Under the pieces are notes generated by a model. It was not told the origin of the DNA. It searched no databases and worked only from the letters and a program-made list of their open reading frames with translations. Positions 27,530 through 29,934 of a stretch of 64,000 nt of DNA are shown piece by piece. Source of the stretch: Psilocybe cubensis (Eukaryota); contig CM039001.1 in NCBI GenBank assembly GCA_017499595.2, positions 1,860,001 to 1,924,000 of the forward strand, given 5' to 3'. The translations under genes and the position numbers were made by a program. Each line of letters opens with the position of its first letter. Position 1 is the first letter of the stretch.

Positions 27530-28766
27530 CGAAACCCGCATACGTTTTTCAGAAATTCCTCTACACGTTTTCAATGATGTAAATGCTCTGATAATGGTCT
27601 TACACGAAGGGAATTGATCTTCTTGATGATGAATTATGTGTTTTATCTGTGCGCTTGCAGGGCCTCATGGGGTCAGCATGGCAGTACCTCGTGTAATGTA
27701 GTATATTGTACGTTCCTCGGGTTTTTCTTTTTGCTATTGTACATATCTTCCTCAGCTCTACACTTCAGTATCTTTTGAATCTTTTTATTGCACCCATGGC
27801 TCTTTTCAGCAACAACCCTATAAGATCTGCAGCAATAGGTAGCGAAGTTGGCCTCTAATGCCTTGATCACATTTTTCTGACTCTCATCGATCGAAATAAG
27901 CTGCTGTGGTTGTCTCTATAGCACACTTCGCGACGAAGTTCCTGTCCTCTTTCAGTGAGCCTGACCCAGAATGCTTGGAGGACAACAGAACTGCAGTACC
28001 AACTAGAGAGTATCACAGATGCTTTCCAGCTGACCCAGACATCAATCGCGATACTGTCCATCTCGGCTCTTTTATTCATGTGAGCTGCTCTCTTCGCTGG
28101 CGCATAGCGAGCCATCTTACAGTGATACTGCTAGGATTATGATGCACCATAAGAGGGATGGCCAGATGCTTACCCAGTCGCAAGAAGAGATGGCAGTGAT
28201 TGGGATATTTGCATTGTTTTGGGTTGGTACGTCTGCTGACTATATGCCAGCCAAGGAGTAATTCGACGTGCATTCCAGTTTTCCTTGTGGGATACAAGTT
28301 GTTAACAACCAAGCAGAACGGCGGCGGGATTGGAGGTGGCGCTCCTGCTGCTGCAGAGGTTGGGTTACCCAAGGTATCGCAGGCTTCGCCGCGTTGGCGA
28401 GATCCGTGTGCAGACGACGATGTCTACTGCATTTACGAGGAGTACACGTATTTCTAGTAGAGCGACTCCTGATTATTTCTGGAGGGCTGTGGGAGTAGTA
28501 CACGAGGCAATGCGAGATACCGAGGCATTCCGGATCATGTCCAGAACGGACAAAGAAGAAAATTGCATGGAGGTGACAATACGGTGCCAGCAGGCAGAGC
28601 TGCATTCCAAAGGTCGTGATTTCGGTCGTTTCCGATCGTTAATTCCTGCTGCCCTTGCTTACTCGACGACCGCACCTTATCTCCCGTTCCTTGCATTCCT
28701 ACCCTCTCCGTAATCTCTGTCTGTACATCTGCCCCCTGCTGACCGCCCTTTTCTTTGATTTCTACT

Positions 28767-29658
28767 ATGATAAGTCTGGCCATTTGCTCGCGTCGCTCTC
28801 TAGCCTAATTGTTGTTTCATATCTACGCCAATCCTAACAAGCGCCGCATTGAGACGGATGTCATGAAGATGTACTGTCTTTGAGCGCATATATTCAGCAT
28901 GTAGCTCACCTCAGAGTTTGTCAGGCTCATGTCGGATTACGAGGTCTCTCTCGTAAATGACAATATGCAAGAGTTTTACGTCCGCTTTCATGGTCCCTCC
29001 GAAAGTGAGGCTTCTTGCGCCTAGTTGTTGTGGCATTTGCTTGGGTGACTGACTATGCCGCTTTCGCTTTCGCTCAGCCCCCTTTGCTGGTGGTGTATGG
29101 AAGATACATGTCGAACTCCCTGACCAATATCCTTTCAAATCGCCCAGCATCGGATTTATGAACAAGATATTCCACCCCAATATCGACGAACTGTTCGTGC
29201 CGTTTTGCCGCTATCTGATTGTTTATGACTCTGAGCAACACGTGTTGTGTAGTAGCGGCTCGGTCTGCCTGGATGTGATTAACCAAACCTGGTCACCGAT
29301 GTTTGGTCAGTCGTGTGCAGTCGCTTTCCATTATCTGGGTCACTGAAAGTTGTCATGCTTAGATATGATCAACATCTTTGAATCATTTCTCCCTCAGTTA
29401 TTGCGCTACCCAAACCCTAATGATCCCTTGAACGGCGAGGCGGCAGCTCTCCTGATGCGACACCCTAAAGAATATGATGCGAAAGTGAAAGGTACGCGCC
29501 ACTACCATTTATTGAAGCTCGAATGTTGATTTTTCTGGAAACCAGAGTATGTCCAGAGGTATGCAACCAAGGAGGCTGCCGACGCCGCTAATACCAACGA
29601 CGATGACGACCAAGACGAAGAAATGAGCGACATTGGAAGCATCAGCGATGGCGAGTGA
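28767..29658 (+). CDS. UBC8: Ubiquitin-conjugating enzyme E2 (Ubc8/UBE2H)
   Basis: [34 protein letters not shown]...[36 protein letters not shown] with the catalytic Cys and an acidic tail. The start at 28767 depends on an AT-AC intron (see findings). Confidence 0.93.
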
Positions 29659-29934
29659 AATGGACACCTTACCTTCCTTATCTCCGCATCTTTTCCAGGT
29701 CACCGGATGATGTTACGTTTCTTCATGGACATTTTACGAACCACACACTGCCACTATCCCTTTAGCTAGCTGTATTACCATTTTTACCACCGCGCGCTAG
29801 GCCGCGTCCATTGTTGTTAACTTTTACCAGGTTTTTGATGTTTTGTTTTTGAATTACAGGTTGTACAATAAATGAGCTATGAATGTAAAATGGATACATG
29901 GAAAGTGGATGAGAGACCAAAACTGATGCAAGTG

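Follow-up and report, generated by a model that had tools for sequence, protein, structure and literature searches.

A probable U2-type AT-AC intron directly after the start codon of UBC8 in Psilocybe cubensis and other mushroom-forming fungi

A stretch of 64,000 nucleotides (nt) of the Psilocybe cubensis genome (assembly GCA_017499595.2, contig CM039001.1, positions 1,860,001 to 1,924,000 of the forward strand; the whole stretch is referred to here as the window) contains a gene for a ubiquitin-conjugating enzyme (E2) of the UBC8/UBE2H type. In genomic DNA the first intron of this gene has AT as its first and AC as its last two bases, and it is removed from RNA exactly at ATG/AT...AC/GCC (here and below a slash within a sequence marks the border of exon and intron). 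Based on the results of this study, the intron, which lies directly after the ATG of a gene of seven exons and 178 amino acids (aa), is very probably (about 0.9) a genuine AT-AC intron of the U2 type (type II), and it appears from comparison of related loci to be an old, clade-wide intron of mushroom-forming fungi. The observation is far beyond chance, because the junction is present in RNA-derived contigs and the same arrangement was found in 68 of 71 related loci, against 0.045 by shuffling.

In the window, the ATG at 28767-28769, which is the earliest in-frame start after the stop codon TGA at 28740-28742, is followed directly by ATAAGT (28770-28775), and the second exon reads GCC AAT CCT AAC AAG CGC CGC ATT GAG ACG GAT GTC ATG AAG from 28827. 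An in-frame TAA (28806-28808) sits inside the intron, within a branch-point-like CTAAT, and no ATG occurs between this TAA and the conserved N-terminal motif of the KRR type. The initial annotation of this DNA, made from the sequence alone, had proposed that an AT..AC intron of 57 nt must be removed here, and all of the elements it named are present in the window. It had also called this size typical, which agrees with the other five introns of the gene (54, 73, 60, 57, and 54 nt), and had stated that unspliced RNA encodes only a 13-codon peptide, which the reading frame from the ATG at 28767 confirms. Its claim that no AG acceptor could be joined in frame to a nearby ATG did not hold, since 72 in-frame GT/GC...AG joins are possible on paper.

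Contigs of three datasets were compared with positions 28200-29900 of the window. Two of them, X10 and X11, are runs of one study, which contain 60% of the sampled words and whose label as RNA is a guess; the third, X9, is DNA from a different study. X10 and X11 gave one long contig each, in which six stretches were skipped. The first skip joins 28769 to 28827, leaving out 57 nt with AT..AC ends, and as no letters are shared at the junction the position of the cut is unambiguous in the one contig of each run. The other five skips are the predicted introns 2-6, all with GT..AG ends. Six exact intron-sized gaps, five of them with canonical ends, indicate that the X10 and X11 contigs derive from spliced RNA. 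Between 28278 and 28769 both contigs run colinear with the genomic sequence, with the joint of 28769 to 28827, exactly the one that had been predicted, as the only one at the start; no joint into 28842 or elsewhere near the start codon was found among the joints of the two contigs. A further dataset from a relative, with a small share of matches (X12), matched only in scattered conserved pieces, none of them at exons 1-2.

A canonical GT-AG or GC-AG intron leading from an upstream exon into the AG at 28840-28841, or a start at the internal Met of ...DVMK, could be proposed in place of the AT-AC intron, and the 72 joins enumerated on paper include such candidates as ATGGAG/GTGACA at 28567 joined to the AG at 28841 and ATGATAAGTCTG/GCCATT. 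However, the RNA-derived contigs use none of the 72 and only the joint of 28769 to 28827. Moreover, all of the donors are poor (GTGACA, GCCATT, GCTGCC), and introns of 149-681 nt would be needed, save with two poor GC donors (GCCATT and GCCTAA), whereas the other introns of the gene are 54-73 nt long. The ANPN codons upstream of 28842 are also conserved as coding in orthologs. Such a gene structure is therefore extremely unlikely, and a canonical junction that joins a more upstream exon to 28842, which had been named beforehand as an outcome that would overturn the proposal, did not appear in X10 or X11.

It is likewise extremely unlikely that AT and AC are errors of sequencing or assembly, or that the junction is an artefact of reverse transcription or assembly. 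The rarity of such introns, and nothing more, speaks for this. A 98-kb contig of X9 spans 28200-29900 unbroken, and its sole differences from the window are those at 28337, 28701, 28882, 28943, 29124, and 29277 and an insertion at 28240; A28770 and C28826 are identical, and there is no difference within 28770-28826. The same A and C in an independent assembly indicate that they are not a sequencing error, and the GT/AG termini on resequencing, which would have told against the proposal, were not encountered. The lack of shared letters at the junction makes template switching at a repeat unlikely. The same termini furthermore occur in 68 metagenome loci, and the same excision in two contigs resembling complementary DNA (cDNA), as presented below.

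Metagenome contigs were scanned with a degenerate pattern for the conserved N-terminal motif, and at least 112 UBC8 loci (L001-L112) were obtained; the counts of loci here and in the following paragraphs are among the matches listed. An in-frame ATG is present 1-8 codons before the K in 40 of these loci, most of which read MSSPKRR and carry the ascomycete-type motif ...PYKSPSIGFVNR..., one further locus (L103) has only 3 nt upstream, and 71 evaluable loci are without an in-frame ATG. The arrangement ATG/ATNNGT...YAC/ in frame was found in 68 of the 71, with an in-frame YAC 49-124 nt after the donor, followed by 1-5 codons and KRR. No GT...YAG intron in the same register was found in any of the 71 loci, and the AT...AC pattern was absent from all 37 evaluable loci with an in-frame ATG. 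When the 200 nt upstream were shuffled as a control, a mean of 0.045 of 71 loci showed the pattern. The donors of the 68 loci are ATAAGT (39), ATGAGT (20), ATATGT (8), and ATACGT (1), and the acceptors are CAC (47) and TAC (21); a (C/T)TNA(C/T) motif is located mostly 17-23 nt from the 3' end. Beyond the first six and the last three bases the introns vary freely. When grouped by 85% identity of the intron, the 68 loci form at least 41 clusters, of which the largest has 12 members. The check for conservation in related ubc8 genes that accompanied the original proposal thus came out in its favour. In addition, three loci nearest to an ustilaginomycete protein (L014, L016, L010) have an in-frame MTSP or MASP start and contiguous coding sequence, and represent either intron-free genomes or cDNA.

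All of the 68 loci hold more introns downstream, which indicates that they are genomic DNA. A diagnostic stretch of 12 residues is present in the form of the window in 36 loci, as a variant in 6, and as ...PYKSPSIGFVNK... in 1, and lies outside the locus in 25. Two other contigs are cDNA-like: L101 is without exactly the 61 nt ATATGT...TTCCAC of L073 and L074, and L022 is without exactly the 59 nt ATAAGT...TGACAC of L098 and L100. In both, the coding sequence is contiguous, the second intron is gone too, and the 5' leader matches genomic AT-AC loci.

The taxon labels obtained with tblastn were noisy, because the protein varies so little and introns are read through in many of the named models, and three placements were kept. 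The group with M+STP is Russula-like, L101 being 100% identical to the Russula model P0067 over the aligned part; L050 is Suillus-like (with the shared ...HVELQAEYPYK...), and L003 is Gymnopilus-like. These placements suggest that the intron goes back at least to the divergence of several agaricomycete orders. A very divergent pair, L077 and L105, has AT-AC introns of 121 and 124 nt. No named close relative of L077, the most divergent AT-AC locus among the matches listed, was found by the search; compared with 28 named proteins, it is nearest to Serendipita, which agrees at 53 of 64 residues while the runner-up agrees at 51, a difference too weak for placement.

U12-type introns have the donor /ATATCCTT and the branch-site motif TCCTTAAC, and neither is present in intron 1. 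The donor in the window is ATAAGTCT, and no TCCTTAAC occurs near the 3' end, the last 30 nt of which (...CTCTAGCCTAATTGTTGTTTCATATCTAC) hold only the U2-like CTAAT. Instead, ATAAGT fits the consensus of the U2-type 5' splice site except at +1, and /ATAAGT is the consensus given for U2-type AT-AC introns (PMC5029451). The AT-AC introns of animals and plants are mostly of the U12 type (PMC5029451, PMC7072748, PMC1557818), and intron 1 could on this ground be assigned to the minor spliceosome. Such an assignment is nevertheless very unlikely: besides the donor and the missing branch site, none of the donors in the window and the 68 loci starts with ATATCC (0 of 69, among the matches listed), and a survey reported that neither Ascomycota nor Basidiomycota have convincing minor introns, the loss of most or all minor small nuclear RNAs (snRNAs), and a "complete absence from ... 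Dikarya" (Larue and Roy 2023, PMC10639083). The U2-type signals and the lack of a U12 spliceosome in Dikarya had both been part of the initial annotation, and both agree with the published consensus and survey. The U2-like signals, together with the reported lack of minor snRNAs and introns in Basidiomycota, point to removal of the intron by the major spliceosome, and thus to a probable dependence on U1, U2, U4, and U6. In the same 68 loci the donors of the second intron, among the matches listed, include GTAAGT in 3, GTGCGT in 22, and GTATGC in 12. The AT-AC donor is thus closer to consensus than the neighbouring donors, which fits compensation for the mismatch at +1.

Several points weigh against the U2-type interpretation or limit it. 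X10 and X11 are labelled as RNA by guess only and are assembled contigs of one study, which are mute on efficiency, retention, and rare isoforms. The strain of the RNA carries six variants relative to the window, all exonic or upstream, and the DNA of the AT..AC intron was seen in X9, which shares three of the six variants. Many of the metagenome loci are closely related to one another, a single cluster taking up 12 of the 68, and in the lineages of L101 and L022 exon 2 starts with A, making the cut ambiguous by 1 nt there, while it is unambiguous in the window. The dependence on U1, U2, U4, and U6 and the A-C contact between the intron ends are drawn from sequence and published work, and CTAAT is a putative branch point, assigned by its sequence only.

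The spliced gene model (28767-29658, plus strand; Table 1) contains an open reading frame (ORF) of 537 nt. Its UBC core includes an HPN motif and the catalytic Cys, and the ORF covering exons 4 and 5 (29053-29346) matches the Pfam family UQ_con (PF00179) with E = 1.8e-17. The top named matches are "ubiquitin-conjugating enzyme E2 8" and "E2 H", and the N-terminus and the acidic C-terminal tail are shared with the orthologs, so that by its sequence the gene is identified as the UBC8/UBE2H ortholog. In yeast (Ubc8/Gid3) and human (UBE2H) this protein is established as the E2 of the GID/CTLH ligase, and the same role is predicted here. The spliced product begins with MANPNKRR..., in line with agaricomycete orthologs, and the residues predicted by the initial annotation to precede the conserved motif match the N-termini of those orthologs (MANPSKRR, MASPSKRR, and others). 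The donors of the five GT introns are GTACTG, GTGAGG, GTTCGT, GTCAGT, and GTACGC. As a separate observation, the ORF 29053-29346 runs stop-free through intron 4, and a protein search with this read-through ORF brought up mostly mispredicted proteins, many of which (e.g., P0005-P0016) keep the equivalent of intron 4 as an insertion after ...HPNIDEL.

Table 1. Features of the UBC8 gene, in positions of the window. Joints are those of the X10 and X11 contigs.
Feature	Position	Strand	Remarks
Exon 1	28767..28769	+	Start codon alone; X10 and X11 contigs continuous up to 28769, then 28827
Intron 1	28770..28826	+	57 nt, AT..AC; joint 28769->28827 in X10 and X11
5' splice site of intron 1	28770..28775	+	ATAAGT, i.e., GTAAGT with G1 changed to A
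Branch-point-like CTAAT	28805..28809	+	A at 28808, 18 nt before the final intron base; putative, by sequence
3' splice site of intron 1	28824..28826	+	TAC instead of YAG; ...TATCTAC ends at 28826
Exon 2	28827..28870	+	14 codons and 2 nt; piece present in X10 and X11
Intron 2	28871..28924	+	54 nt, GT..AG; joint 28870->28925
Exon 3	28925..29004	+	Model and RNA-derived contigs
Intron 3	29005..29077	+	73 nt, GT..AG; joint 29004->29078
Exon 4	29078..29192	+	UBC core, HPN motif; model and RNA-derived contigs
Intron 4	29193..29252	+	60 nt, GT..AG; joint 29192->29253; in frame, stop-free
Exon 5	29253..29305	+	Catalytic Cys; model and RNA-derived contigs
Intron 5	29306..29362	+	57 nt, GT..AG; joint 29304->29362, a cut 1 nt to the right fits too
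Exon 6	29363..29491	+	Model and RNA-derived contigs; 100% identical to P0122 and P0123
Intron 6	29492..29545	+	54 nt, GT..AG; joint 29489->29544, a cut 2 nt to the right fits too
Exon 7	29546..29658	+	Acidic tail, stop TGA 29656-29658; model and RNA-derived contigs

The AT-AC intron helps to explain why UBC8 of mushrooms is frequently mispredicted. Over the 42 residues of exon 6 the identity is 100% with two public models named Psilocybe cubensis, as expected if the window is from this species or a very close relative. These models are P0122 (79 aa) and P0123 (82 aa), which consist of the last two exons alone and are missing the N-terminal 96-99 residues, so that the public UBC8 models of this species are stumps of 79-82 aa. 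When 30 named agaricomycete UBC8 models were compared, 12 began with M, 2-6 residues, and (K/R)RRI, with N-termini such as MANPSKRR, MANPSRRR, MASPSKRR, MAGQ(S/T)KRR, MAAPSKRR, MSTPKRR, MSSPKRR, and MTSANPKRR. These properly started models suggest that some pipelines have captured the intron silently. The other 18 were faulty, being truncated, fused to the upstream gene, or extended. Truncated models start with MSDYEV or MKMLMSDYEV; models of Gymnopilus (P0088), Grifola (P0098), and Russula (P0067) are fused with the upstream neighbour; and those of Lentinula raphanica, Amanita, Panus, and Trametes maxima are extended further upstream. The protein model of Dentipellis (P0050) starts with MIS, as ATG ATA AGT would read when the intron is read in. 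In the overlong models P0053 (Coprinopsis, ...YY/SLPGKRR), P0066 (Sanghuangporus, ...LY/SNPSKRR), P0323 (MH/SSSKRR), and P0294 (KY/STPKRR), Y or H stands before the expected N-terminus, as is expected from read-through of an intron ending in ...(T/C)AC. The model with KY/STPKRR belongs to a rust fungus, a hint that the origin of the intron could predate the Agaricomycetes. Work on the GID/CTLH ligase in mushrooms would begin from wrong proteins as long as such models are used.

If the U2-type interpretation is correct, intron 1 would be recognised like other short fungal introns, with U1 and U6 reading TAAGT at +2 to +6 and branching in the CTAAT region 18 nt from the 3' end, and would be removed by the major spliceosome. 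In the second catalytic step, A(+1) and C(-1) would stand in for the usual non-Watson-Crick contact of G with G. A yeast intron with A first and C last, made by Parker and Siliciano in 1993, is said to be the experimental basis for this contact between the first and the last base. A single reversion, to GT...AC or AT...AG, would be expected to block the second step, and the A...C pair could therefore act as an evolutionary trap that is hard to revert by point mutation. As two simultaneous changes would be needed to revert, long persistence is possible without any special function.

A different explanation for the persistence, and only for the persistence, which follows the inference of the initial annotation, would be that AT-AC is kept as a valve, with slow or conditional splicing limiting Ubc8 and hence the activity of the GID/CTLH ligase. 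The pair has been kept in at least 41 sequence clusters without reversion to GT-AG, retention would yield only the 13-codon peptide, and such sites can be inefficient, as the AT-AC isoform makes up about 1-2% of RPL30 mRNAs in S. cerevisiae (PMC5029451). On the other hand, only fully spliced contigs were seen, though contigs drop rare forms; the near-consensus donor argues for efficient recognition; and the two simultaneous changes needed for reversion already account for persistence without function. A regulatory role of this kind is thus improbable, although less so than the alternatives concerning the splice sites themselves.

How the intron could have arisen is suggested by the three loci among the 71 (L007, L038, and L068, among the matches listed) that do not show the AT-AC pattern. 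They read ATGAG/GT(A/G)(T/C)GT...YAG/(C/T), i.e., a GT-AG intron lies exactly 2 nt further 3', with donors GTATGT or GTGCGT and lengths of 108, 221, and 55 nt. The UBC8 gene of S. cerevisiae likewise has a first exon of 5 nt and the same form, ATGAG/GT...AG/Y, for which no source was found in the literature searched. One plausible origin, though less likely than not, is a single event in which an older GT-AG intron slid by 2 nt; the AT-AC intron would then be a molecular fossil shared throughout the clade of mushroom-forming fungi. Loss of GG at ATGAG/GTAAGT would give ATG/ATAAGT, an intron now starting with A, which could not pair with the old AG and would use the AC two bases upstream. The old AG would become the first two bases of exon 2, so that the frame would be restored and the mRNA (ATG AGY ...) unchanged, and the A...C pair would then be locked, any single reversion being harmful. 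The codon usage at the border is compatible with such a slide: the first codon of exon 2 encodes Ser in 23 of the 41 AT-AC clusters, with AGY in 22 of these 23, whereas elsewhere in these peptides Ser is encoded by TCN in 14 of 16 cases (all among the matches listed), and from this preference many AT-AC genes read ...YAC/AGY. However, AGY is likewise the second codon of 23 of the 35 intronless loci with Ser in second position (among the matches listed), and the window itself has TAC/GCC, not YAC/AGY. If true, the slide would be a clean case of intron sliding coupled to a switch of the terminal dinucleotides.

Upstream of UBC8, a small gene on the plus strand (27900-28457) encodes the peptides …AVVVSIAHFATKF…, …MMHHKRDGQMLTQSQEEMAVIGIFALFW…, and …DPCADDDVYCIYEEYTYF*, with no Pfam match. 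It contains a GT..AG intron of 52 nt (28226-28277), which is spliced in the X10 contig and kept in the X11 contig, and inside which there is a TA-rich length polymorphism at 28240 (10 additional bases in X11 and 14 in X9). Both contigs continue unbroken from this gene into UBC8, which indicates that the transcripts of the two genes overlap or read through. The fused models P0088 and P0098 join a homolog of the small gene to UBC8.

Introns of the U2-type AT-AC class are already established, though very rare: Sheth et al. (2006, PMC1557818) counted 24 when about 610,000 introns from five species were surveyed, and the UBC8 intron adds to this class. Cases in filamentous fungi, in xylanase genes, were hypothesised only (PMC1557818). 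Fungal annotations list AT-AC introns in small numbers (Frey and Pucker 2020, PMC7072748), with 0.03% AT-AC in SnowyOwl models (PMC4084796), and in Coprinopsis they were pooled with GT-AG and GC-AG introns (PMC12230235). For Ganoderma lingzhi, 13 AT-AC sites (0.014%) were reported, two genes with such sites (chr6g0094801 and chr1g0010881) being targets of reverse-transcription polymerase chain reaction, and, as in UBC8, an unrecognised AT-AC intron broke a gene model (PMC11590231). The SnowyOwl and Ganoderma studies give counts and other genes, and no cross-species conservation is described in the text searched; UBC8 was not found in the searched text of either (PMC4084796 and PMC11590231) or in one supplement file of the latter. 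In the full-text literature searched, which leaves most subscription journals outside, no paper was found that describes such an intron in UBC8, or any AT-AC intron shared across a clade of basidiomycetes.

The closest known counterparts are the type II introns of human SCN4A and SCN5A, which, like that of UBC8, have AT...AC termini next to a 5' splice site that is U2-type in all other respects, and belong to a group whose borders have been conserved over long periods in animals, from human to pufferfish (PMC1557818). They differ in that their U2 dependence was shown biochemically (PMC1557818), whereas that of the UBC8 intron is deduced from sequence, and in that the latter, of 57 nt, resides in a basidiomycete without a minor spliceosome, directly after the start codon of a seven-exon E2 gene. 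With U12-type AT-AC introns the UBC8 intron has the terminal dinucleotides alone in common; the 5' splice site and the branch site differ, and the machinery is missing from the group. An engineered AT-AC intron is spliced in yeast (PMC5029451, citing Parker and Siliciano 1993). It has the same compensating pair as UBC8, but it is a laboratory construct, whereas the UBC8 intron occurs in nature, is constitutive by the evidence of the contigs, and is conserved across a clade. In S. cerevisiae RPL30, as in UBC8, an AT-AC junction occurs in a Dikarya fungus without a minor spliceosome (Gould et al. 2016, PMC5029451); there, however, it is a side product of 1-2%, nested in an intron, with a 5' site unlike /ATAAGT, whereas in UBC8 the junction has /ATAAGT and is the sole route to the protein. 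What sets the UBC8 intron apart is that it is supported by RNA and is the sole route to an essential-looking N-terminus in hosts without a minor spliceosome, and its at least 41 diverged variants, all with A first and C last, offer a naturally occurring series of mutants in which to study how the first and the last intron base contact each other.

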